From IMG/VR virus record IMGVR_UViG_3300023179_004209, positions 167,832 to 231,831 of that record: 64,000 bases of DNA; one strand, written 5' to 3'. Position 1 is the stretch's first letter. Every line of letters begins with the position of its first letter. Origin of the DNA: a virus. Its lineage: Duplodnaviria > Heunggongvirae > Uroviricota > Caudoviricetes. Shown here one piece after another: positions 22,551-33,727 of this stretch. The notes below the pieces were generated by a model. That model ran no database searches, had not been told where the DNA came from, and saw only the letters and a program-made list of their open reading frames with translations. Both the position numbers and the translations under genes were made by a program.

Positions 22551-22935
22551 TGGTGGACATAAAGGGAGTCGAACCCTTGTCTTTAAAACAGTATCATAAT
22601 CAGACTACGTGTGTATACATTTTTTAGTTGTTAAGAACAATTATATTAAATGTCAAAACTAATTGTCCTAAAGATTTACAAAATATTCAACCAACAACGC
22701 AAATCAAATTGTTGATATAGCCTGATAGTTTACACTCAATATTATTATCAGACATCATAATATCAAATGTGCAGCCAAATTAGGCTGCTAGTGCTACTGC
22801 ATCACGGGAGGTGAAGTTGTAGCTGATTACATTATCTTCAGCAGTTAATGTTTTGATAGAAGTTTTAAGAGGCCAACTATCATCCTCTACACGCCTAACT
22901 AGTCAATTGTCTTAAATCGAAACCAGTATATGCCC
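22551..22935 (-). ncRNA. ssrA: tmRNA; tag AEDNVISYNFTSRDAVALAA encoded at 22780-22842
   Basis: 5' GGGCATA pairs with 3' TATGTCC-ACCA with a G3:U70 Ala wobble; T-arm AAGGGTTCGACTCCCTT; tag ORF ends ALAA-stop within the GCAGCC/GGCTGC hairpin. Confidence 0.95.
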
Positions 22936-23384: not shown

Positions 23385-23443
23385 ATATCTATTAAAGAAC
23401 TTACACCAATATATAGTATAAGTCAAATCAAAAAACAAAAATC

Positions 23444-23559
23444 TATCAGACACCTTGACGGTTTTATGGGCATATTTAACCCACAGATTATTAGCCAAAC
23501 ACAGCCGTTGGTTATTGTTTCGGACCTAACCAAGTTCAAACCTCTACCTTTGTCTGATA
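23444..23559 (-). ncRNA. Putative structured non-tRNA RNA inside array 1
   Basis: Terminal 9-bp stem TATCAGACA/TGTCTGATA enclosing hairpins TTGGTTA/TAACCAA and TGGG/CCCA. Confidence 0.5.
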
Positions 23560-23566
23560 TAAAAAA

Positions 23567-23901: not shown

Positions 23902-23984
23902 GTAAAATTTTGACAATCTCTGATTTCTTCATGGGACGATATTATCAGTCCTCAGTTCCAATGTCAAGTGGAGTTGTATTAAAA

Positions 23985-24348: not shown

Positions 24349-24423
24349 TGGTAGGCGGTAAAGGATTTGAACCTCTGGCCTTGACCGTGTAAAGGTCCTG
24401 CTCTTCCACTGAGCTAACCGCCC
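24349..24423 (-). tRNA. tRNA-Val(TAC)
   Basis: Canonical cloverleaf, loop TTTACAC, CCA. Confidence 0.92.
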
Positions 24424-24455
24424 ATTTAAAAATCGTTATTTAACTTATTCCAATT

Positions 24456-24552
24456 ATCGCCAGTTGGGTTCTGCACTAAACATAACACCCAGTGACCGAT
24501 CAAGTGTTTTAACTTTCGTTGGGGACACCAGATAGAGTTTCAACCCCGAACA
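24456..24552 (-). ncRNA. Conserved structured leader RNA, copy 1 (5' of tRNA array 1)
   Basis: Homologous to 33477-33590: TTGAAACTCYATCTG, TTGATYGGTC, TGGGTGTTATGTT...TGCAGAACCCA...GGCGAT, with compensatory stem changes. Confidence 0.7.
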
Positions 24553-24559
24553 TGTATTT

Positions 24560-24587
24560 AATTTACCACACCTTCTCATTTTGTCAA
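24560..24587 (-). promoter_or_regulatory. Sigma70-type promoter of tRNA array 1
   Basis: TTGACA-16bp-TAAATT with extended -10 TG. Confidence 0.7.
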
Positions 24588-24592
24588 CACCT

Positions 24593-24635
24593 AAAAATCA
24601 AAAACCCGTCATTCTTTTTTTGAAGTGACGGGTTG
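24593..24635 (-). terminator. Attenuator terminator 1
   Basis: AACCCGTCA..TTC/GAA..TGACGGGTT stem plus TTTGATTTTT. Confidence 0.85.
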
Positions 24636-24662
24636 GTTCTTTAAGAGCAAACAACCTCGCAC

Positions 24663-24716
24663 TCAACTTCCGGATGGGAGTTGACTTGCTTGACTAGGTT
24701 GTGAAACTGAATTCAT
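24663..24716 (-). CDS. Leader peptide 1 MNSVSQPSQASQLPSGS (17 aa)
   Basis: Manual translation; preceded by TATATATT promoter-like motif; stop codon overlaps the antiterminator strand; composition matches array 1 tRNAs. Confidence 0.8.
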   Translation of the reverse strand: MNSVSQPSQASQLPSGS

Positions 24717-24758
24717 ACTATGACAATATATATGTAAAAATTTTTGAAATCAACAAAT

Positions 24759-26117
24759 TTATTTACATTTTATTAAATTTTTAAACTTGTCTAATACTGA
24801 TGACTTGGTTTCAACAATAAAATTATTCTTGTTATTAACCAATTTAATTTCATTAATCACTGGCTCATTTGGTACTGGACCTACAGGTACGGCATTACCA
24901 TATGAATTGATTGGTGGCCACCATCCACCCAAATTCTTCAATAAATTATTTGTATCAACATTAATATTATTTTCTTGAATTATAATATTTTTAAATGCAG
25001 GCGTAGATAAATTCAAATCTCTATCCATACTGTATCCCAAAAATATTCCATCCCATGGTGCATACTTTCCTGGCTTCCAATTCCATGTTCCTTTACCAGT
25101 TGTTTTAACATTATTGTTTCTAATAATCAAATCATGATGATATGCATAGTTTACCGCCCACCATTCATTGCCATATTGTCTTACATAGTTTTGCGCACTT
25201 AATCTAATAAAACAAGGAACTTCTAGTCCACTATTTTCTTCGACAATTGTTCCAATATTCATTCCAGTGTCAACATAATAACACATTCCTTGAAATCCAT
25301 CAAAGTTATTTTTTCTAATCACCGCACCTTTTGTATTAGCAACACTAATACCAGCTAATGGAGAAAATTGTGTTTTACCAGCGTCACCTCTAAATGTACA
25401 ATATTCAACTAAACATTGTGCAGCAAACACTTTACCAGCCAAATGTCCACCTACTTGTACATGTACAATTTGTTCTGTATCATGTTCTGGATATCTATTA
25501 TTTCTGCCTGGTGAATGAAAATCGCATCTTCTTACAGTAGTTCCTTTTGCACCATCTTTTGAATTCTTTGATAATAATGATATGATAATAAATGATGTGG
25601 CATTATCTTTACCCACATTAAATCCTTTAAATTCACAATCTTCATATAATGTATTACTACCAAATGTAGTACAACCGGCAGTGGTTAATTCACCGCCTTT
25701 AGCTTCATTTATTTCATCATAGTTACCGTCAAAAGTAATTCCTTTAAATACTATGTTCTTACAATCTACACTACCATCACCACCAGGTCCAACTGCCTGA
25801 ACCATAATCAATTGATTTCCATTTACCGCCAAATCTCTTCTACCACTTAAATATTTGGATAATTTTAAAATTGTTTTACCTTTACCCTTTCCAATTATTT
25901 GAACTCCTGATTCATTTTGTTTTGGATTCCAACCCCATAAAATACCACTTTTTAATACCTTTTCTGGATCATTTTCACTGATTCCTTCTCCACCAATATA
26001 ATATGTACCTTCATCAAGTTCACAAATATTATTTTCCATTATACACTTATTGATTGCGTATGCGGAGTTTACTTTTATATCATTTGGCTTTGCGCCATAT
26101 TGTTCTGGTTTACTCAT
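24759..26117 (-). CDS. Right-handed parallel beta-helix protein (pectate-lyase-like; possible depolymerase)
   Basis: 452 aa; N-terminal EQYGAKPND motif, G.GKGKTILK, repeated xExNxF/IxNN beta-helix rungs. Confidence 0.6.
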   Translation of the reverse strand: MSKPEQYGAKPNDIKVNSAYAINKCIMENNICELDEGTYYIGGEGISENDPEKVLKSGILWGWNPKQNESGVQIIGKGKGKTILKLSKYLSGRRDLAVNGNQLIMVQAVGPGGDGSVDCKNIVFKGITFDGNYDEINEAKGGELTTAGCTTFGSNTLYEDCEFKGFNVGKDNATSFIIISLLSKNSKDGAKGTTVRRCDFHSPGRNNRYPEHDTEQIVHVQVGGHLAGKVFAAQCLVEYCTFRGDAGKTQFSPLAGISVANTKGAVIRKNNFDGFQGMCYYVDTGMNIGTIVEENSGLEVPCFIRLSAQNYVRQYGNEWWAVNYAYHHDLIIRNNNVKTTGKGTWNWKPGKYAPWDGIFLGYSMDRDLNLSTPAFKNIIIQENNINVDTNNLLKNLGGWWPPINSYGNAVPVGPVPNEPVINEIKLVNNKNNFIVETKSSVLDKFKNLIKCK

Positions 26118-26139
26118 ATATTATATTCCTTCTATATAA

Positions 26140-26177
26140 ACTAAAAACCTGCCATCCTTTTTGAATGACAGGTTTAC
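26140..26177 (-). terminator. Intrinsic terminator
   Basis: AAACCTGTCATTC-AAAAAA-GGATGGCAGGTTT-TT. Confidence 0.75.
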
Positions 26178-26196
26178 AATTTATATTTTTATTTTA

Positions 26197-26301
26197 TTAT
26201 CTAGCTCCACTTGGTTTTGGAGTTCCACTTGGCTTTGGTGTGCCTGTTGGTTTTGGAGTTGAACTTGGAGTACCACTTGGTTTTGGAGTTGGTGTTGGCA
26301 T
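26197..26301 (-). CDS. Small TPKPSG-repeat peptide (34 aa)
   Basis: MPTPTPKPSGTPSSTPKPTGTPKPSGTPKPSGAR; AAAGGA upstream; synonymous variation between repeats; downstream terminator. Confidence 0.65.
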   Translation of the reverse strand: MPTPTPKPSGTPSSTPKPTGTPKPSGTPKPSGAR

Positions 26302-26344
26302 AAACTATATATTCCTTTCTTTAGAGATACATATTACTCAAAAA

Positions 26345-26380
26345 TAAAAAACCGTTAACTTTTTACGGTTAACGGTTGTA
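26345..26380 (-). terminator. Intrinsic terminator after outer-membrane barrel gene
   Basis: ACCGTTAAC/GTTAACGGT stem followed by T tract. Confidence 0.7.
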
Positions 26381-26402
26381 ATTCTTTATTTTAATTTTAC
26401 TA

Positions 26403-27089
26403 TTAGAATGTGTACTTAACACCTGCGGAATATAGAACTTCAGCAGTCAATTCTTCAGTAGCAAAACGGTACTTAGCAGTACTAAAGTTGTTGTCAATTA
26501 CACCAACTTCAGCATATGGTACAAAGTTACCAATTGGACGAGATACATTCAACTTGGCAGTAACTGCATCATATCGTTCAAACTTTACGAATTCAGCAGA
26601 TGGAGTTGCCTTGAATCCATATGGCAGACTAAATGTATGATACGCACCAAAACCTGCACCAGCTTGTTCTAGGTTAATGTCATAAGCACCACGAACATAT
26701 GGAGTCAACCATGGATTCTGTGCTTCCAATTTTACACCAAATTCAGTGGAATTCTTAATACCAAATCCACCGGCTTGGTGACGAGTAGCAGTTGCATCCA
26801 AACGAAGGGTCAACCATTCAAAGGTCTTTACACCCTTACCTGTACCAACTGTCCAGTGGGATTGATCAACACCATCCTTTGGCAATAACAAACCACTAAC
26901 ATATACATCCGCATACTTTAGTGACTTTACCGCAGCAAAACCAACATATGCAGAACCTTCTGCACGACTAACACCGTTAACGATGTATTGGTTATTGTAT
27001 CCAGCATCAAGAGTCAATGATGCAGTATCTTCTGCGGTTACGGCGACAGCTGCGAAAAGAGCAGCCAATACTAATACTAGTTTCTTCAT
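26403..27089 (-). CDS. Outer-membrane beta-barrel protein (putative porin)
   Basis: Sec signal MKKLVLVLAALFAAVAVTA, alternating amphipathic strands, C-terminal GVKYTF BAM signature; higher GC than neighbours. Confidence 0.8.
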   Translation of the reverse strand: MKKLVLVLAALFAAVAVTAEDTASLTLDAGYNNQYIVNGVSRAEGSAYVGFAAVKSLKYADVYVSGLLLPKDGVDQSHWTVGTGKGVKTFEWLTLRLDATATRHQAGGFGIKNSTEFGVKLEAQNPWLTPYVRGAYDINLEQAGAGFGAYHTFSLPYGFKATPSAEFVKFERYDAVTAKLNVSRPIGNFVPYAEVGVIDNNFSTAKYRFATEELTAEVLYSAGVKYTF

Positions 27090-27301
27090 ATTTATTTATT
27101 ATTTATCTTTAATGTTTTTGTTTAACTAATAAACTTCACTCAAAGTTTATTTACTTAACTTATTCATCATACATTGATCTTCAAGAATATCAACTTATTA
27201 TATAATGACAGTTCTGAACATAACTATCACTCCCATTTTATAAAAATTAAAAATAATTTTAACCCATTATTTATCTATATATAAAAAACTATTTTACATT
27301 T

Positions 27302-28114
27302 ATGGATAATATTACAACTGAAAAACCTTCGTTCATCAAACAATTAGATGCAAAAAAATTAGTAAATAATTTGATAGTACCCATCATTTTTTTAGGTCTA
27401 ATTGTTTATTTTGTATTCTTAAATAACAGTTATAAAAACCTAACAGGTAAATTCAATAAACAAACCGAAATCGTTTCAAATCAAAATTTGCTCATTACAA
27501 ATCTTAATTTAAAAAATTCAGAACTATCCACTGTAATTAAAAATTATGATCAAAAATTCAGCTTTTTACAAACAAATGTAGCACATTTACAACAACTTAC
27601 AGATAACTTAAAAAAGTCATCTGAAGACAAGGATATTAAAATTAAATTGCTTGAACAAGAAAAAGGAGCACTAGAATCTGATGTCAAATCACTTCGTAAT
27701 ACTATAGTAAAAATGACCGCAGAAATCGTAGAATATAGCGACGAATTGAAAAAAGCCAAAACTGAAACTGAGCAAAATGATCTAATAAACAAGATTACAA
27801 AGCTCACTGAAGAAAGAAATTTCCTACAAGATCAAGTCAAACAATATGAAAAAATCATCGACGACTTAAGAAAAGAAAACACCTTTTTAGCAGCAAAATT
27901 AAGAGAAAATCTCAAAAAAGAAGGTTATGAATTCAACTCTCCAATAGGTACTTGGCCGAAAGGAGCCGAAGCATTAATGAAAATTTCCAGAGAAAATCTA
28001 AAGAAAAAGCTGGATGAATTGAACAAAATCAAAGAAAAAGAAGAACCAAAAAAAGAAGAAAAAAGTGATGAAAAACCCAAAAAACAAGGGTTTTTTAGAA
28101 ACCTTTTCAAATAA
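27302..28114 (+). CDS. Membrane-anchored coiled-coil protein
   Basis: 270 aa; single N-terminal TM, long heptad region. Confidence 0.7.
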   Translation: MDNITTEKPSFIKQLDAKKLVNNLIVPIIFLGLIVYFVFLNNSYKNLTGKFNKQTEIVSNQNLLITNLNLKNSELSTVIKNYDQKFSFLQTNVAHLQQLTDNLKKSSEDKDIKIKLLEQEKGALESDVKSLRNTIVKMTAEIVEYSDELKKAKTETEQNDLINKITKLTEERNFLQDQVKQYEKIIDDLRKENTFLAAKLRENLKKEGYEFNSPIGTWPKGAEALMKISRENLKKKLDELNKIKEKEEPKKEEKSDEKPKKQGFFRNLFK

Positions 28115-28127
28115 ATAAATACAAATT

Positions 28128-28601
28128 ATGCCATACGAATACCACGCAAAAGTAACAGAAGTTGTTGACGGAGATACCATTGTCATTGATATTGATTTAG
28201 GTTTTGATGTCATCTTTACCAAACAAAAAGTACGACTTTTAGGAGTTGATACCCCAGAAAGTCGTACCGCAGATAAAACCGAAAAAGTATTTGGTTTAGC
28301 AAGCAAAGACTATGTAAAAAAATTTATTGAGTCTTGTCCTGATAAACATGTCATTATTAGAACCCATGTCAGTGATGATGTAGATAGTAACGGTAGAGAG
28401 AAATTTGGCCGTCTTTTAGGTGAAATCATACAACCTGACACCAAAAAAGTACTCAATGACGAACTTATCAATAACGGTTACGCCGTTCGTTATATGGGCG
28501 AAAATAAAGATAAAGTAAAAGACCTCCACCTAAAAAATCGTAAACGACTCATAGATGAAGGTCTCGTTAAAATGTCTTATAAAGACGCTGGTATACTATA
28601 A
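28128..28601 (+). CDS. Thermonuclease (SNase-like) family nuclease
   Basis: VVDGDTI, VRLLGVDTPE and KFGRLLGEI motifs. Confidence 0.9.
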   Translation: MPYEYHAKVTEVVDGDTIVIDIDLGFDVIFTKQKVRLLGVDTPESRTADKTEKVFGLASKDYVKKFIESCPDKHVIIRTHVSDDVDSNGREKFGRLLGEIIQPDTKKVLNDELINNGYAVRYMGENKDKVKDLHLKNRKRLIDEGLVKMSYKDAGIL

Positions 28602-28609
28602 AAATACCA

Positions 28610-30127
28610 TTATTCAATTACAGTAAACTTCAAACTTCTAATAAGGAGTTTGAAGTTTTTATCTTTTACATTATTCAAAACTAATTTAATTGATTTTGGA
28701 TATCCCACAAATTTAGTATTCAAATCAGTTGTCAATGACTGCGGTCCAGTTCCTATTGTAATTGGAAAATCATGAGATGTATCAATACCCTTATCTGGTT
28801 GTCTACCATCTAAAATATTAACACGACCAACATAATTACCATTTACATATACACTAATTTTAAATTTATCAACATATGAAATTGGACCAGTTTCAACCGT
28901 CAATATTGACAATTTTGACTTTAAATTTAGTAATTCTTTGATTTTATCACTTTCTGGAATATCCAACACAACTCCAGCAGATGTTAATGTTCCGGTAACA
29001 GGAACTGTAACTGTCTTCGGAATATTTGTATTAATATTAGAAATTAACTTAACAGGTTCATCAGATGGTGATTGATACTTTACATTAGTCATTTTAGTAA
29101 CAATATCTTTTACAGTTACCTTTACAGGACTACCATCAATATCAGTATATGTATATTCTTGTTTTCCCCAAGGACCATTGATATCTGGCATTTCATTTTT
29201 ATACAATGACCAAATACGATCTATATTTCCATGATGCATAAAGAATATAGGATCGTTAGCTGCATATCTCAATGTTCCCATCGTTCTATTACCACCATAA
29301 CGAGTTCCTACCCAATCGTGTCCATTGTTATGTGGTCCTTGTTCCAATAAACCTTGACCAGTATTTCTATCAGTGACTGACTTACCACCGAAAATTTCAA
29401 ATGGTGCCTGTAAAATAGCATTAATATAATCACTACTCATATACCACTTGGTTTCAATAATATGTTGTTTTGAATCTGGACTTACTTCATTATTAGGGTC
29501 CATAGTTGGTTCCGCAATAGATGGCTTTCTATTACCATCATATAATGCCAAATTATCAAAATCCAGATTATCTGCACTTACCATATCTTCTTGAGTCAAA
29601 TCATATCCAAATAATGGACTAGATAAACCAGATTGTTTACGATTCTTTGTATTAGGCATTTCTTGATGATTACTCCAATCCCAATATGGATATGCAAAAG
29701 CAACACCGTTCCATCCAAAATTAGTCTTTAAAATATTATCCAATATTCTTTCCAAGAAATAAATATATCCACGATGCCATGGCAAAAAGTACCAACTCCA
29801 ATGTACTTGATCCATAGGAACACCTGAATCTGTACAATGATACGCATGCAATTTAGCATAGTTTTCCCATTGTGTAGGACTATTCAATGGTACATTTCTA
29901 CGCATATATCCAACTGCACGACACAAATTCTTTACTTCATCATCCGTCAAATCATAAAAACTCTTACGAATTCTTGTCGGTTCATTATTAAAATTAAACC
30001 TCTTACCACCAACAGCAGGTCCACATGTTGGATCATTAATCGGTTGTTTAGATGCCGCATTTAAATTTAATCCAAGTGTACTAGTAAGTAACCCAGACTT
30101 TAAAAAAGTTCTTCTTGTTGTATCCAT
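28610..30127 (-). CDS. Tyrosinase/polyphenol oxidase with Tat signal
   Basis: TRRTFLK twin-arginine signal; CuA HAYHC...HWSWYFLPWHR; CuB HNNGH...DPIFFMHHGNIDRIW. Confidence 0.9.
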   Translation of the reverse strand: MDTTRRTFLKSGLLTSTLGLNLNAASKQPINDPTCGPAVGGKRFNFNNEPTRIRKSFYDLTDDEVKNLCRAVGYMRRNVPLNSPTQWENYAKLHAYHCTDSGVPMDQVHWSWYFLPWHRGYIYFLERILDNILKTNFGWNGVAFAYPYWDWSNHQEMPNTKNRKQSGLSSPLFGYDLTQEDMVSADNLDFDNLALYDGNRKPSIAEPTMDPNNEVSPDSKQHIIETKWYMSSDYINAILQAPFEIFGGKSVTDRNTGQGLLEQGPHNNGHDWVGTRYGGNRTMGTLRYAANDPIFFMHHGNIDRIWSLYKNEMPDINGPWGKQEYTYTDIDGSPVKVTVKDIVTKMTNVKYQSPSDEPVKLISNINTNIPKTVTVPVTGTLTSAGVVLDIPESDKIKELLNLKSKLSILTVETGPISYVDKFKISVYVNGNYVGRVNILDGRQPDKGIDTSHDFPITIGTGPQSLTTDLNTKFVGYPKSIKLVLNNVKDKNFKLLIRSLKFTVIE

Positions 30128-30128
30128 A

Positions 30129-30329
30129 TTATTTTATTTTAGTATTAACCCAACCAATTCGATGTTTACACATCCAATCAATCAATGCCTTTTCAAATCC
30201 TATATCATTACCTTTCTTTTCGCTTTCAATCCATTTATGTTTTTCTATTTCCTTCTTCAATTCCATAAATTTTTGATATAGATTAGAATTTTGCATACAA
30301 AAATAAATACAACTCTGAAACATAAACAT
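30129..30329 (-). CDS. DUF4032-like small protein
   Basis: EIEKHKWIESEKKGNDIGFEKALIDW motif; real start probably the later Met (MQNSNL). Confidence 0.65.
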   Translation of the reverse strand: MFMFQSCIYFCMQNSNLYQKFMELKKEIEKHKWIESEKKGNDIGFEKALIDWMCKHRIGWVNTKIK

Positions 30330-30351
30330 AACAAATTTATTTATCTAAAAA

Positions 30352-30426
30352 TGGAGTCCCGTGTTGGATTTGCACCAACCTAATACTGTTTTGCAGACAG
30401 TTGCCTAACTACTCGACCAACGAGAC
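30352..30426 (-). tRNA. tRNA-Cys(GCA)
   Basis: Loop CTGCAAA, U73, CCA. Confidence 0.88.
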
Positions 30427-30432
30427 ATTAAA

Positions 30433-30507
30433 TGGAGCCTGTTACTAGAATCGAACCAGTGCTTTCTCGTTACGAAGGAGAAGTGCTACCACTATCACTA
30501 AACAGGC
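30433..30507 (-). tRNA. tRNA-Thr(CGT)
   Basis: Loop TTCGTAA, C2-G71, CCA. Confidence 0.85.
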
Positions 30508-30515
30508 ATATTAAA

Positions 30516-30592
30516 TGGAGCCTCATTCCAGACTTGCACTGGATTCTCAAGTTTACCGAACTTGCATAATAAACTACTTATACGAATAAGGC
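30516..30592 (-). tRNA. tRNA-Thr(GGT)
   Basis: Loop TCGGTAA (C33 atypical), CCA. Confidence 0.78.
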
Positions 30593-30600
30593 ATTTAAAA

Positions 30601-30677
30601 TGGCACACCCGGTAGGACTTGAACCTACAACCTTCTCGGTAGAAACGAGTTGCTCTATCCAATTGAGCTACGAGTGC
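30601..30677 (-). tRNA. tRNA-Arg(TCT)
   Basis: Canonical cloverleaf, loop TTTCTAC, CCA. Confidence 0.9.
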
Positions 30678-30684
30678 GTTAAAA

Positions 30685-30761
30685 TGGTAGGGTAGAGGAG
30701 ATTCGAACTCCTGACCTTCTGTGTGTAAAACAGACGCTCTCCCGAATTGAGCTACCACCCC
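30685..30761 (-). tRNA. tRNA-Val(TAC)
   Basis: Canonical cloverleaf, loop TTTACAC, CCA. Confidence 0.92.
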
Positions 30762-30772
30762 GTTATATAAAA

Positions 30773-30846
30773 TGGTTGACCGTGCCGGTTACGCTCCGGC
30801 GTAGGACGATTATCAGTCGTCTATTCTGCTATTGAATTAACGGTCA
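30773..30846 (-). tRNA. tRNA-Ile(GAT)
   Basis: Loop CTGATAA; atypical T-loop AGCGTAA; CCA. Confidence 0.8.
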
Positions 30847-30853
30847 ATTGAAA

Positions 30854-30927
30854 TGGCGGCCATACGGGGTTACGCTCCCCGGACTTCCCTTAGACAGAGG
30901 GTTAGGTTACTATTACTTTATATGGCC
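30854..30927 (-). tRNA. tRNA-Asp(GTC)
   Basis: Loop CTGTCTA; G73; atypical T-loop AGCGTAA; CCA. Confidence 0.78.
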
Positions 30928-30932
30928 AAAAT

Positions 30933-31010
30933 TGGTGCTGTGCTCTCCACGCCGTCTCTGTGTTTTACCGATTGTACCGGTCGGCAGTCACTTATGGGGC
31001 CAGTTACCCA
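30933..31010 (-). ncRNA. CCA-ending non-canonical RNA in array 2
   Basis: GC-rich ~78 nt unit spaced like its tRNA neighbours and ending GCACCA, but with no cloverleaf; hairpins TGGG/CCCA, ACCG/CGGT and GCCG/CGGC. Confidence 0.4.
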
Positions 31011-31016
31011 TTAAAT

Positions 31017-31095
31017 TGGTGGAGCCAGTGGGTAATGCTCCCACACGAATCGTCCGGTTAAAAGCCGGCTGCCCGTCTATTGTGGCTTTGACTCC
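31017..31095 (-). tRNA. tRNA-Lys(TTT)
   Basis: Loop CTTTTAA; atypical D- and T-loops; CCA. Confidence 0.8.
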
Positions 31096-31101
31096 ATAAA
31101 T

Positions 31102-31217
31102 TGGTGGTCTAGGTATGGACTTTAACCATACATTCACTGCTTTCGTTTCGGATTGATTACCGTATCCAGCAGCCCTGCGTTTAAATTTCGCCCGATCTTG
31201 CGTTGATCTACTAGACC
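31102..31217 (-). ncRNA. Oversized tRNA-like RNA (116 nt)
   Basis: Perfect acceptor GGTCTAG/CTAGACC-ACCA, D-like GATC/GATC arm, T-like GTATGG/CCATAC arm, very large variable region, no standard anticodon loop. Confidence 0.65.
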
Positions 31218-31226
31218 ATCATAAAT

Positions 31227-31305
31227 TGGTGCAAGTGGTGGGTACTGCCCCCACACGAATATTCTGATTAAGAGTCAGATGCCCGTCTATTGTAGCTTCA
31301 CTTGC
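31227..31305 (-). tRNA. tRNA-Lys(CTT)
   Basis: Loop CTCTTAA; same atypical D-arm as Lys(TTT); CCA. Confidence 0.82.
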
Positions 31306-31344
31306 ATTAAAAATTGTATCTACTACTGTCAATGAACTATAAAC

Positions 31345-31372
31345 ATCTTAACACATTATTTAGTTCCGTCAA
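31345..31372 (-). promoter_or_regulatory. Internal sigma70-type promoter in array 2
   Basis: TTGACG-16bp-TAAGAT with upstream A-tract. Confidence 0.6.
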
Positions 31373-31388
31373 CAACTTTCTTAAAAAA

Positions 31389-31464
31389 TGGTCCCAGTTG
31401 TTGGTTCCGCCCCAACCTCTATTCGTCTTCAGCGAATCGCTTTCACTAGGTTAGCTTAACTGGG
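31389..31464 (-). tRNA. tRNA-Phe(GAA)
   Basis: Loop CTGAAGA; atypical T-loop; CCA. Confidence 0.8.
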
Positions 31465-31477
31465 ATTATAGATAAAT

Positions 31478-31556
31478 TGACAAGTCAAAGGAATCGAACC
31501 TTCTCGGAACAGAGTCGCCCGCTCCTTTACCACGCCATGCGCACTAGCACCTGTCA
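31478..31556 (-). ncRNA. Degenerate tRNA-like RNA (canonical T-arm, no CCA)
   Basis: TGACAGG/CTTGTCA stem, GAAGG-TTCGATT-CCTTT T-arm, no recognisable anticodon loop. Confidence 0.45.
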
Positions 31557-31561
31557 AATTC

Positions 31562-31667
31562 TGATTGCGTGGTTGGAATCGAACCAACGGCCCGTGCTTA
31601 TTCACACTTTTACGGTGTCATTTACCATCATAGTGAGCACTGATCTACCTCTGAACTACACACAATC
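31562..31667 (-). ncRNA. tRNA-like RNA with 37-nt expanded anticodon loop
   Basis: Normal acceptor, D- and T-arms; anticodon stem GTGCT/AGCAC closes a 37-nt loop with an inner ACAC/GTGT hairpin. Confidence 0.6.
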
Positions 31668-31672
31668 TAAAA

Positions 31673-31759
31673 TGGTGGGAGCAGTAGGACTTGCACCTAC
31701 GAAGGCCTTTCGGCCGGGAGATTTACAGTCTCCAGCAATTGCTACTATGCGATACTCCC
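31673..31759 (-). tRNA. tRNA-Tyr(GTA)
   Basis: Long variable arm, loop CTGTAAA, CCA. Confidence 0.9.
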
Positions 31760-31764
31760 AAAAA

Positions 31765-31890
31765 TGGCTCCAGAGGAGGGTTTCGAACCCCCAACCCTGC
31801 GGTTAACTTTGGCCTTGTGAGATTTGCACTCTCTATTAAATAATACTTTATGGCCCACAGCCGCATGCTCTACCATTGAGCTACTCTGGA
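31765..31890 (-). tRNA. tRNA-Asn(GTT) interrupted by a 51-nt insertion in the anticodon
   Basis: Removing GTGGGCC...GGCCAAA restores the canonical 75-nt tRNA with loop CTGTTAA. Confidence 0.75.
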
Positions 31891-31891
31891 A

Positions 31892-32368
31892 TTAAATTGT
31901 CAATAAACCTGCGTGAACTTCTCCGTGACAATTATGACATAATAACTCACACTTGTCAACTTCTAATTTTAACTTATCAAAACTAACAGATTGTCCACTA
32001 ATTTGAAAATCTTTTTGTAAAGGATCTTTATGATGAAATGTAAGATTACCAAAATAATTTTTGTATCCACACTTTATACACTTACCGCCTTTATATTCAA
32101 CTAATTTTTGTTTAGTTCTTACTCTCCAATCAACAACGGATTTTACTCTTCTGGTTTTTCTTTCTTCATTCGTTAATTTATTTTTGCCTACCGGTCTAGT
32201 ATTTAGATACTTTATCAGAGTTCCTCTACAATGTCCATATTTTTTTTGACAATCTCTTAAAGAATTTCCATCGTCATAAAATGCTTGAATTTCTTTAAGT
32301 TCAGAATCAGTGATTGTTTTAATCCCCGCTAAAATTCTTTTTTGTTTTATAATATCAGATGTTACCAT
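31892..32368 (-). CDS. HNH endonuclease (free-standing, inside tRNA array)
   Basis: CIKCGY...LTFHHKDP...KCELLCHNCHGEVH motif; N-terminal HTH-like segment. Confidence 0.9.
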   Translation of the reverse strand: MVTSDIIKQKRILAGIKTITDSELKEIQAFYDDGNSLRDCQKKYGHCRGTLIKYLNTRPVGKNKLTNEERKTRRVKSVVDWRVRTKQKLVEYKGGKCIKCGYKNYFGNLTFHHKDPLQKDFQISGQSVSFDKLKLEVDKCELLCHNCHGEVHAGLLTI

Positions 32369-32435
32369 ATAATTAACTTTCTATGTTAATAAATAGGTAA
32401 CAGGTTAACAAAACAATTATAATTTTATTAGAAAA

Positions 32436-32509
32436 TGGCTCCCAAGGAAGGACTCGCACCTTCACAAGAACGTTAACAGCGTTCCGTGCTACTTTGACAC
32501 TACTCGGGA
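32436..32509 (-). tRNA. tRNA-Asn(GTT)
   Basis: Loop CTGTTAA, G73, CCA. Confidence 0.88.
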
Positions 32510-32628
32510 ATTTTTAAAAATTAAACGTTTACTGGATTTCACTATGCTTGTTCCACCTACTAATCATAACCTCGTCAGATTATAACCTTCAATGTCTATC
32601 AGTGTCAATACATTACTTACTACTTCAA

Positions 32629-32701
32629 CTATTGATTCAGATTCGAACTGAATGACTCCTGCATATGGTGCAGTTGCTTTACCAGTTAAGCTACGTTCGT
32701 T
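32629..32701 (-). pseudogene. Pseudo tRNA-Met/Ile2(CAT)
   Basis: D-, anticodon (ACCATAT) and T-arms intact, but the acceptor strands do not pair and there is no CCA. Confidence 0.55.
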
Positions 32702-32726
32702 GCCTTCACCTAATGTATTTGAAAAA

Positions 32727-32804
32727 TGGCATCCACCGTAAGAATCGAACTTACCCACGGGCTTTTGGAGAGCCTGTCGCCTAATCCTTGGAACATTGGC
32801 GGAT
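32727..32804 (-). tRNA. tRNA-Trp(CCA)
   Basis: Loop CTCCAAA, G73, CCA. Confidence 0.82.
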
Positions 32805-32814
32805 ATACTATAAA

Positions 32815-32891
32815 TGGTAGTCGCATGGGGATTTGAACCCTATTCTCCATCTTGAGAGGATGGTGTCCTATCACACATAGACGATGCGACC
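32815..32891 (-). tRNA. tRNA-Glu(CTC)
   Basis: Loop CTCTCAA, CCA. Confidence 0.88.
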
Positions 32892-32901
32892 GTTAAATAT
32901 T

Positions 32902-32989
32902 GTGACGAGATTACCCCAGTAGGAATTACCCGGCATGCAAGGGCTCCTTCAATCTTTTGGGTTTAAGTCTCTTTGTTGCCCTCGTCACT
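32902..32989 (-). ncRNA. Putative structured RNA between the Glu tRNAs
   Basis: Terminal 8-bp stem GTGACGAG/CTCGTCAC enclosing a GC-rich interior. Confidence 0.45.
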
Positions 32990-32996
32990 TTTAAAA

Positions 32997-33074
32997 TGGT
33001 AGCCCCACGGGGAATTGAACCCACGATTTGTAGATTGAAAGTCTACCGTCCTATACCCATTAGACGATGAGGCC
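32997..33074 (-). tRNA. tRNA-Glu(TTC)
   Basis: Loop CTTTCAA, CCA. Confidence 0.9.
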
Positions 33075-33085
33075 ATTATATAAAT

Positions 33086-33163
33086 TGGCGCTTCAGTGAG
33101 GATTCGAACCCCAAACTCAACGTTCGTAGCGTTGCGTGATAAATCCATTTTCACCACCGAAGC
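33086..33163 (-). tRNA. tRNA-Arg(ACG)
   Basis: Loop CTACGAA, CCA. Confidence 0.9.
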
Positions 33164-33169
33164 ATAAAT

Positions 33170-33245
33170 TGGTTACCCCACTTGGATTTTCACCAAGGTT
33201 GATGTCTCAGAGAACACATCCGTCCTAAACCTAGACGATAGGGTA
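33170..33245 (-). tRNA. Atypical Glu-like tRNA with 10-nt anticodon loop
   Basis: Glu/Asp-type D-arm TCGTCTA..AGGAC, stem GATGT/ACATC closing GTTCTCTGAG, CCA. Confidence 0.55.
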
Positions 33246-33253
33246 ATTAAAAT

Positions 33254-33332
33254 TGGGGTGTACGGCGGGATTCGAACCCGTATCTGCCAGACTCACAATC
33301 TGGGACATTATTCCAGTTATGCTACATACACC
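33254..33332 (-). tRNA. tRNA-His(GTG)
   Basis: Loop TTGTGAG, G-1:C73, CCA. Confidence 0.9.
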
Positions 33333-33344
33333 ATTACTATAAAT

Positions 33345-33419
33345 TGGAGCCTCCTTCCGGGCTTGCGCCGAACTCTGGGGTTTACAAAACCTCTGCATCG
33401 CTGCCTATGCTTAGGAGGC
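33345..33419 (-). tRNA. tRNA-Thr(TGT)
   Basis: Loop TTTGTAA, C2-G71, atypical T-loop, CCA. Confidence 0.85.
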
Positions 33420-33476
33420 ATCTAGAAAATTACTTCATACTTGCCTTAACACAGTAATCACCTCAGTAATACTGTC

Positions 33477-33590
33477 ATCGCCCTATGGGTTCTGCATCTC
33501 AACATAACACCCACGGACCAATCAATTGATTTTCCCAGTCTTTAACCTTTGGTTACTGGCGGCGGCTCAACAGATGGAGTTTCAAGCCTT
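33477..33590 (-). ncRNA. Conserved structured leader RNA, copy 2 (5' of tRNA array 2)
   Basis: Homologous to 24456-24552, with covarying stems. Confidence 0.7.
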
Positions 33591-33605
33591 ATCTAATCTT
33601 CACTA

Positions 33606-33633
33606 AGTCTATCAGAACTTCAGAGTTCGTCAA
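33606..33633 (-). promoter_or_regulatory. Sigma70-type promoter of tRNA array 2 (second candidate TTGAAG-16-TAGATT at 33696-33723)
   Basis: TTGACG-16bp-TAGACT with upstream A-tract. Confidence 0.7.
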
Positions 33634-33727
33634 CAACTTTTTAAAATTTTCTTTTCATCATCCAATGAACTACTTACGTCGTTCACTGTTTAACTAATCT
33701 ACCACACTTACAAAGAACTTCAAGAAC

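Follow-up and report, generated by a model that had tools for sequence, protein, structure and literature searches.

The window analysed here is a 64,000-nt stretch of DNA, bases 167832–231831 of the IMG/VR virus record IMGVR_UViG_3300023179_004209, which is 295,831 bp long and rated complete. The DNA of this phage has a G+C content of about 30%, and its major capsid protein is of the T4 type (Pfam Gp23). The closest cultured relatives of the capsid protein, from Flavobacterium phage immuto and Microcystis phage Mel-JY01, are only 53% and 50% identical to it, and the phage therefore has no close cultured relative; the metagenomes listed for its DNA in the run index are mostly from lakes and rivers. 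The minus strand carries two arrays with 21 tRNA genes detected by ARAGORN, two more detected with Rfam and one gene for a transfer-messenger RNA (tmRNA). At the head of each array lies one copy of a structured leader RNA, which is the subject of this work (Table 1). A preliminary description, made from the letters of the window, had located two such copies, and a covariance model built from 24 relatives (R1) finds both of them at these places, on the same strand as the tRNAs. The third-best score in the whole 295,831-bp genome is 16.5 bits. Two strong matches with the next one so low indicate a two-copy family and not a dispersed repeat.

Each copy had also been described as lying a few nucleotides downstream of a sigma70 promoter with a 16-bp spacer, and the promoter scan bears this out for both. 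Both promoters have a TG before the −10 box, and in relatives the −35 box, the TGn and the −10 box are kept while the sequence of the spacer varies. A strong intrinsic terminator is positioned just upstream of promoter A and of promoter B. Between the terminator and promoter B there is a second promoter-like site with TG (TTGAAG-17-TAGATT, 33694–33722, minus strand), and the promoters of unit B may be in tandem. The position directly 5′ of the first tRNA, claimed for both copies, holds for copy A, which precedes a tRNA-Val. It does not hold as worded for copy B, where the next gene is an atypical tRNA-Thr-like one that is not annotated as a tRNA.

The leaders were compared with known RNA families. 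At the gathering threshold, a scan of the whole window with Rfam 15 returned only tRNAs and the tmRNA. When both leaders were scanned at E-values up to 10, the only matches were a truncated tRNA and three weak chance matches to eukaryotic small nucleolar or long non-coding RNAs; there was no T-box or known riboswitch class, no hammerhead, twister, twister-sister, pistol, hatchet, HDV-like or hairpin ribozyme, and no Y_RNA or Yrl. In 50,697 phage records and in E. coli genomes, blastn gave no matches to either leader, and R1 found nothing significant in the nearest phages by capsid protein (immuto, Mel-JY01, Rhodothermus phage RM378 and a 484-kb uncultured phage). Run without filters, R1 found nothing in rnaC, rnaD or the leader within positions 66000–76000 of T4, where its best score was 14 bits inside the coding gene e.6, and in positions 26000–31000 of HK022 its best score was 9.1 bits (E 0.24). 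An exact-core scan of 185,579 bacterial species genomes gave four matches, two of which are 3-kb contigs assigned to metagenome-assembled genomes (MAGs) that are identical to the phage type C defined below and are probably misbinned phage, and two of which, in Gillisia and in a Burkholderiales MAG, fail the covariance model. A lone 31.8-bit match of R1 in 151 Flavobacteriales and 151 Burkholderiales genomes was rejected as well, lying antisense in a 780-codon open reading frame (ORF) with no tRNA nearby. In the literature searched, no description of the element was found.

Relatives were gathered by three pattern scans of IMG/VR, which gave 33, 46 and 94 stretches, and by a scan of JGI metagenomes, which gave at least 119. 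After filtering by the covariance model or by a strict core expression, at least 178 occurrences in at least 133 distinct contexts were retained, and all covariation counts given here were taken on 76 distinct sequences. An Infernal search against Rfam and a covariance model scanned over phage metagenomes were the two computational checks that the preliminary description had proposed; no family was matched even at an E-value of 10, and the covariation was upheld.

RNAalifold and the model agree on nested helices P1 (4 bp), P3 (7 bp with a bulged G), P4 (5 bp) and P5 (2 bp). Over the whole fold, 97.8% of the cells are paired, with compensatory change at eight pairs, and in a control with the partners slid by 1–3 columns the paired fraction is 30–50%. 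The compensatory changes are spread over five helices, including the pseudoknot described below. In P3 one pair is CG in 42 sequences and AU in 34, and a second is CG in 72 and UA in 4; in P4 a pair is GC in 73 and AU in 2, and in P5 a pair is GC in 65, CG in 5 and UA in 5. The first of these is the A-U to C-G exchange of the 3′ hairpin that had been noticed between the two window copies. The shared blocks listed at that time are likewise all present, namely P1 (GGGG/CCCC in one copy and GGC(U)/(A)GCC in the other), the AAC/GUU hairpin and the 3′ hairpin. The outer stem of the long form of P2 occurs in relatives as CCAGU/ACUGG, GCAGU/UCUGC, GGAUUA/UAAUCC and UGAGU/ACUCA.

The helices of the earlier fold stand, but it had missed an H-type pseudoknot, and the conserved loop of P1 is not simply single-stranded, its 3′ half being knotted. 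The last nine bases of this loop, AUCUGNUGN, are complementary to a linker, N′CAN′UUGAU, located just before P3. The knot helix is 98.9% paired. Three haplotypes, each complementary throughout, GGUGU/ACACU, GAUGU/ACAUU and GUUGA/UCAAU, make up 63 of the 64 unique parsable elements, with no mixed forms among them; one variable pair is UA in 42 sequences, GC in 25 and AU in 8, and the other is AU in 42 and UA in 33. In the distant form L041, the terminal G-U of the knot is changed to G-C. It is nearly certain that the P1 loop is unpaired in its 5′ half and knotted in its 3′ half to the linker that follows an A-run, that P2 lies in the third loop of the knot, and that the knot abuts the long hairpin. 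The unpaired UUGAAACUCY, the knot, the A-run before its 3′ strand and the G(U/A)UA/GA internal loop are all kept, as is P4 (UGGGU/ACCCA, with one full A-U replacement). That the loops and P4 are kept so well beside a freely varying P2 and tip suggests, from the pattern of conservation, that they may dock to a conserved macromolecule.

Calculated with a model that leaves the pseudoknot out, the nested fold is thermodynamically no more stable than shuffled sequences (z = 0.66 and −0.87). Several further features were considered and rejected. The consensus of the K-turn, the sarcin-ricin motif, the T-loop and the 11-nt receptor does not fit the GUUA/GA loop, which had earlier been likened to an S-turn; a pairing of the P6 loop (GAGG) with a CCUCC linker is confined to type B′ and has no covariation; the 3′ hairpin locally resembles the 5′ portion of tRNA-Val but is not matched by the tRNA model; and a 14-codon ATG frame in the leader exists in window copy A only. 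No pairing was found between the leader and a trailer at the end of the array. In a distant relative, L047 (4070–4110, plus strand), nine bases before P1 (GAUAGAGUU) are complementary to the conserved AAACUCCAUC of the P1 loop, and judging by this complementarity a cis sequestering helix is possible in that one lineage.

Table 1. Coordinates in the window of the two leader RNAs, their helices, their promoters and the first gene of each array.
Feature	Position	Strand	Basis
Leader RNA copy A, short type, 98 nt	24454..24551	-	Covariance model, 108.9 bits
Leader RNA copy B, long type, 119 nt	33475..33593	-	Covariance model, 101.2 bits
Promoter of unit A: TTGACA, 16-nt spacer, TG, TAAATT	24560..24587 (24587-24560)	-	Promoter scan
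Promoter of unit B: TTGACG, 16-nt spacer, TG, TAGACT	33606..33633 (33633-33606)	-	Promoter scan
Copy A stem P1, GGGG (24547-24544) with CCCC (24524-24521) around a 19-nt loop	24521..24547	-	Innermost pair covaries: CG 42, GC 22, UA 10
Copy A, 5′ half of P1 loop, UUGAAACUCU	24543-24534	-	
Copy A pseudoknot 5′ strand, AUCUGGUGU, 3′ half of P1 loop	24525..24533	-	Pairs with 24507-24499
Copy A pseudoknot 3′ strand, ACACUUGAU, preceded by an A-run	24499..24507	-	Complementary haplotypes, covariation
Copy A optional hairpin P2, AAC-GAAA-GUU	24511..24520	-	GCU-GAAA-AGC in relative G001; absent from type C; longer in type B
Copy A 3′ hairpin P3-P4-P5: 1x2 internal loop, GUUA/GA internal loop, variable tip	24456..24500	-	99.1% paired
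Copy B pseudoknot 5′ strand, AUCUGUUGA	33567..33575	-	Pairs with 33529-33521
Copy B pseudoknot 3′ strand, UCAAUUGAU	33521..33529	-	Complementary haplotypes, covariation
Copy B hairpin P2, CCAGU/ACUGG around AACC-AAA-GGUU	33535..33559	-	Outer stem covaries in relatives
Copy B 3′ hairpin P3-P4-P5	33477..33522	-	Covariation
Extra hairpin P6, type B only, loop CUGAGG	33450..33475	-	Stem covaries across relatives, loop kept; loop differs in the most divergent B-like form
tRNA-Val(UAC), gene 1 of array A, 30 nt 3′ of leader A	24349..24423	-	ARAGORN; tRNA-Val within 60 nt in 45/50 type-A relatives
Atypical tRNA-Thr(UGU)-like gene, gene 1 of array B, 55 nt 3′ of leader B	33345..33419	-	Read from sequence; canonical tRNA-Thr(UGU) there in 28/45 type-B relatives

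Type A, to which window copy A belongs, is short, with a P2 of 3 bp and a GNRA-type loop, and type B has a long P2. In type B′ the P2 bears an extra GNRA-capped hairpin, and type C is devoid of P2. A more distant B-like form scores 72 bits, and two distant forms scoring 50–54 bits retain P1, the knot and the 3′ hairpin. Long contigs, such as one of 303 kb (79321–79418 and 97571–97686) and one of 116 kb, carry two copies, one of each type, and both paralogues are found in every near-complete relative. The paralogues have diverged in P1, P2 and P3. The tip of P5 is hypervariable, with about 20 versions of 10–13 nt, and of the 12 contigs with both copies, five have one and the same tip in the two, with two rare tip types among these. 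Despite the identity of the tips, the bases flanking P4 remain type-specific. We read the identical tips as short-patch exchange between the copies; they could also reflect co-selection with a partner.

An exchange of tips is recombination, and type B contains a 10-bp DNA palindrome, ATCAATTGAT. Both would suit a constraint acting at the level of DNA, such as an operator, an origin or a recombination site, or else a neutral duplicated remnant. However, U-G and G-U pairs are invariant in the 76 sequences and would be mismatches if the other strand were read, and the constraint therefore acts on the RNA of the minus strand. Compensatory changes in five helices including the pseudoknot, the lack of the palindrome in type A, and a conservation of the element far better than that of the promoter spacer and the flanks all speak against the DNA-level explanation as well, and we consider it very improbable indeed.

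The genomic context of the element is highly regular. Among the matches listed, to which all context counts by type refer, a tRNA follows type A within 130 nt in 48 of 50 cases, and in 45 it is a tRNA-Val within 60 nt. Type B is followed by a tRNA-Thr(UGU) within 60 nt in 28 of 45, and the rest, where inspected, have an atypical Thr-like gene; after type C there is a tRNA-Val or a tRNA-Pro in 14 of 14. Upstream, a TTGAC and a −10 promoter were found in all 53 type-A contexts with enough upstream sequence, all 48 of type B and 6 of 15 of type C, again among the contexts listed. The retained element is preceded in nine type-C contexts by a tRNA-Val and an ORF of about 50 codons, together with a new promoter. 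In the relative G001 (303 kb), two methyltransferase-like genes, 1.4 kb in all, are situated between leader B and the first tRNA. Given this gap and the insertions upstream of type C, the element tolerates distance on both sides.

Both window copies possess P1 with its conserved loop, the knot to the linker, and P3–P5 with the G(U/A)UA/GA loop, precede a phage tRNA array and score above 100 bits. The description of the element as a conserved structured RNA, without assignment, at the head of both tRNA transcripts is thus borne out by the lack of an Rfam match, by strong covariation and by a position before a tRNA in nearly all of the at least 133 contexts. We regard it as near certain that this is an uncatalogued family of structured RNAs, 90–135 nt in length, which is made from a strong promoter of the sigma70 type and forms the 5′ leader of tRNA-array operons in a clade of uncultured aquatic giant phages of the T4 type.

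The Thr(UGU)-like gene that follows leader B in the window encodes its CCA and has an acceptor stem of 7 bp and the anticodon loop UUUGUAA, but its D arm is odd and its T loop is CGCAAGC. It is missed by ARAGORN and Rfam and is conserved in the relatives L026, L030, L035 and L039. In RNA contigs from two runs, 33337–33449 is swapped for 104 other letters.

What, then, does the leader do? RNase P removes all sequence 5′ of a tRNA, and the leader, being discarded, therefore cannot serve the mature tRNAs; it acts either during transcription or processing, or as a freed RNA. Tentatively, and well short of a firm assignment, we infer that it is a cis-acting, co-transcriptional element of the antitermination type. 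According to this proposal, the nascent pseudoknot would fold close behind the host RNA polymerase and would alter the elongation complex, either unaided or together with a host factor, so that transcription could cross the long untranslated array without premature termination, whether of the Rho type or linked to pausing; RNase P or RNase E would later cut the leader off. Promotion of read-through is the role of HK022 put, Bacillus subtilis EAR, lambda nut and the rRNA-leader elements. The element occurs once per array at a locked position, its two diverged paralogues have been retained over the long term, and distance is tolerated; together these features point to a cis, processive, co-transcriptional role. 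Because both paralogues are kept, where one copy would do in trans, a requirement in cis for each operon fits better than a gene acting in trans. Moreover, tolerance of distance on both sides fits processive elements and not local processing signals. The context thus favours a cis co-transcriptional role over a ribozyme and a small RNA (sRNA).

Since 1.4 kb of coding sequence precedes the first tRNA in G001, the context does not favour a local processing signal. Such a signal, serving to trim the tRNA precursor at its 5′ end, might be a novel type of self-cleaving ribozyme or a hairpin recognised by a host enzyme such as RNase III or RNase E. The size and the pseudoknotted fold of the leader are in the range of small self-cleaving RNAs, and its layout, with the loop of a 5′ hairpin knotted to a segment before a 3′ hairpin, loosely recalls pistol. 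The T4 tRNA precursor, for its part, receives an RNase III-dependent cut upstream of the cluster. Yet the 5′ ends of tRNAs are already defined by RNase P, sites for RNase III or RNase E need less sequence conservation than is seen here, no ribozyme family of Rfam was matched at E-values up to 10, and the element is kept in G001 at a distance of 1.4 kb from the first tRNA. Trimming of the precursor is in our view quite improbable.

The leader might instead be freed as an RNA of 100–150 nt by RNase P, or by RNase E in the AU-rich spacer, and might then accumulate and act in trans. Its unpaired UUGAAACUCY could let it work as an antisense or decoy RNA, or else it could bind a host protein like a sponge; it would then be comparable to the species 1 and 2 RNAs of T4. 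The identical tips, seen in five of 12 contigs and with rare types included, could reflect co-selection with a partner. The strictly conserved unpaired 10-nt stretch indeed begins with a YUNR-like UUGA, the promoter is strong, a compact pseudoknot with a terminal hairpin should resist nucleases, and the stable rnaC and rnaD, which are annotated in the T4 record and are co-transcribed with tRNAs, offer a precedent. However, two position-locked copies would be unnecessary for such an RNA, and the terminator or other usual 3′ module of an sRNA is lacking. Targets of the P1 loop and the tip in the phage genome are at chance level, the longest being 11–12 nt and about as many as expected, and a 10-mer found fourfold is a coding motif of paralogous genes. 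In addition, the model finds nothing in the tRNA region of T4. A role in trans is possible, although we are inclined to doubt it.

A third possibility is prompted by the knot itself. It can be extended by three pairs (AUC with GAU) that compete with the two lowest pairs of P3, so that two mutually exclusive pairings exist for one GAU. Both alternatives are invariant, and the data therefore cannot choose between them. The leader may be considered as a sensor, that is, a riboswitch or a switch operated by a protein or a tRNA, which gates read-through or processing of the tRNA operon; the signal could be an alarmone, a metabolite, an uncharged tRNA or a late protein of the phage, and the switch could operate through the AUC:GAU extension versus the lowest P3 pairs. 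In line with this idea, the leader resembles small pseudoknotted aptamers in combining an H-type knot and an A-rich third loop with internal loops that are conserved and peripheral hairpins that can be dispensed with, and the terminator and promoter-like sites directly upstream may point to a regulated tRNA output. By contrast, a conserved expression platform is lacking, and the 30 nt between the leader and tRNA-Val are AU-rich and vary freely; no terminator follows the element, no known riboswitch class is matched, and as neither of the alternative pairings varies, covariation cannot reveal a switch. We judge a sensor to be unlikely.

Returning to the cis-acting antitermination element, several points weigh against it. 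No intrinsic terminators that it would have to override were detected inside either array, and the transcribed strand is G-rich, not C-rich, which makes it a poor substrate for Rho. Candidate internal promoters without a leader head sub-arrays at 23967–23939 and 32608–32579; the units may be short, and the leader may not be needed for every tRNA transcript. Neither the put region of HK022 nor any Rfam family is similar to the leader, and a domain search of the phage proteins revealed no NusG-like factor. Finally, some RNA contigs extend about 40 nt upstream of the predicted start, to about 24590–24600, and read-through from the upstream unit is therefore likely.

Both leaders are covered by RNA-derived contigs from four metatranscriptomes. 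In three riverine runs the leader bins have depths of 6–91, compared with 0–2 at the neighbouring gene 25038–26339, figures that are only hints given that contigs carry no ends, strand or abundance. By far the highest depth in the metatranscriptome contigs is that of the phage tmRNA at the end of array A (22551–22935, minus strand), which encodes a 20-residue tag ending in ALAA. No SmpB gene was found in the phage, and a search of its proteins gave no TROVE (positive controls being detected), NusG, RNase III or SmpB domains. A tRNA match of Rfam at 31768–31890 (minus strand) spans 123 nt; in contigs from each of the four metatranscriptomes, with a depth of 470 in one run, 31805 is directly followed by 31857 and 51 nt are left out. 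Either these 51 nt are a short intervening sequence that is excised from the RNA, or the contigs stem from a strain allele that lacks them.

Some other features of the neighbourhood deserve mention. The tRNA at 33170–33245 (minus strand) has an anticodon loop of 8 nt, for which ARAGORN gives the four-base anticodon CUCU. Array A also contains a non-coding segment of some 120 nt (23430–23560, minus strand), which a long-range stem between AUCAGACA and UGUCUGAU closes and a U-run follows; after it, and before a tRNA-Ala, comes a promoter-like TTGACT site. The segment could be a further terminator or leader unit. Between the two arrays, 28610–30127 (minus strand) encodes a protein of 505 residues with a central tyrosinase domain (E = 2e-36), adjoined on the opposite strand by a staphylococcal-nuclease-like gene.

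To our knowledge, how large phages control their tens of tRNA genes is almost unexplored. The leader marks the head of both arrays across a clade of abundant freshwater phages and resembles nothing catalogued. It is conceivable, though rather doubtful, that it represents the first dedicated RNA device controlling the transcription of tRNA genes, either as a factor-independent pseudoknot that renders the host polymerase resistant to termination across the tRNA arrays of giant phages or as a riboswitch-like sensor that couples the output of tRNAs to a cellular signal. Should a signal be sensed, tRNA genes would for the first time be seen under riboswitch-like control. The size of the leader suits reporter work in E. 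coli and transcription in vitro without culture of the phage.

Among known systems, the rnaC and rnaD RNAs (species 1 and 2) of T4 are likewise small, are not tRNAs and are transcribed together with the tRNA cluster of a T4-type phage, but they lie at the 3′ end of the cluster, in contrast to the leader at the head of the array. If the leader is a freed RNA, it would be a modern, sequence-rich counterpart to the puzzle of these two species. With SAM-II, preQ1, ZTP and pistol the leader shares an H-type knot, an A-rich loop, conserved internal loops, variable peripheral hairpins and a location in a 5′ leader; unlike them, it has no Rfam match and no expression platform.

The nut sites of lambda and the leaders of rRNA operons (boxB-boxA-boxC) are also promoter-proximal and precede a long untranslated stable-RNA operon, and in types A and B′, as in these systems, a conserved single-stranded stretch is followed by a small hairpin with a GNRA-type loop. 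Differently from them, the element shows no clear boxA consensus, its P2 is dispensable, being absent from type C, and no Nus-like factor was found among the phage proteins. By eye, the loop segment ACUCUAU agrees with lambda boxA at five of seven positions, although the boxA of the host may differ. A boxA-like 13-mer, UGCUCUUAAAGAA, is located outside the element, upstream of promoter A and just before the terminator there (24637–24649, minus strand); it agrees at 11 of 13 positions with the boxA of E. coli rRNA operons and is partly kept in the relatives L081 and L119.

EAR of Bacillus, a pseudoknotted RNA some 120 nt long, acts in cis to promote read-through and can be located within an operon. 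Its host range and type of operon differ from those of the leader, over which no Rfam family was found at E-values up to 10. With putL and putR of HK022 there is no similarity of sequence or structure, put consisting of two plain hairpins as opposed to a pseudoknot with a long hairpin, and the leader heads tRNA arrays. In organisation, however, the two are alike. HK022 has two diverged copies per genome, each a structured RNA of about 70–120 nt just 3′ of an early promoter, and the leader family too has two copies per genome, each in an operon leader 3′ of a sigma70 promoter. The put RNAs are thought to act in cis on the host polymerase and can be positioned at some distance from the promoter, as is proposed here for the leader. 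If the elongating polymerase is indeed modified by the leader, it would constitute a new class beside the very few antitermination elements made of RNA only, put and EAR.

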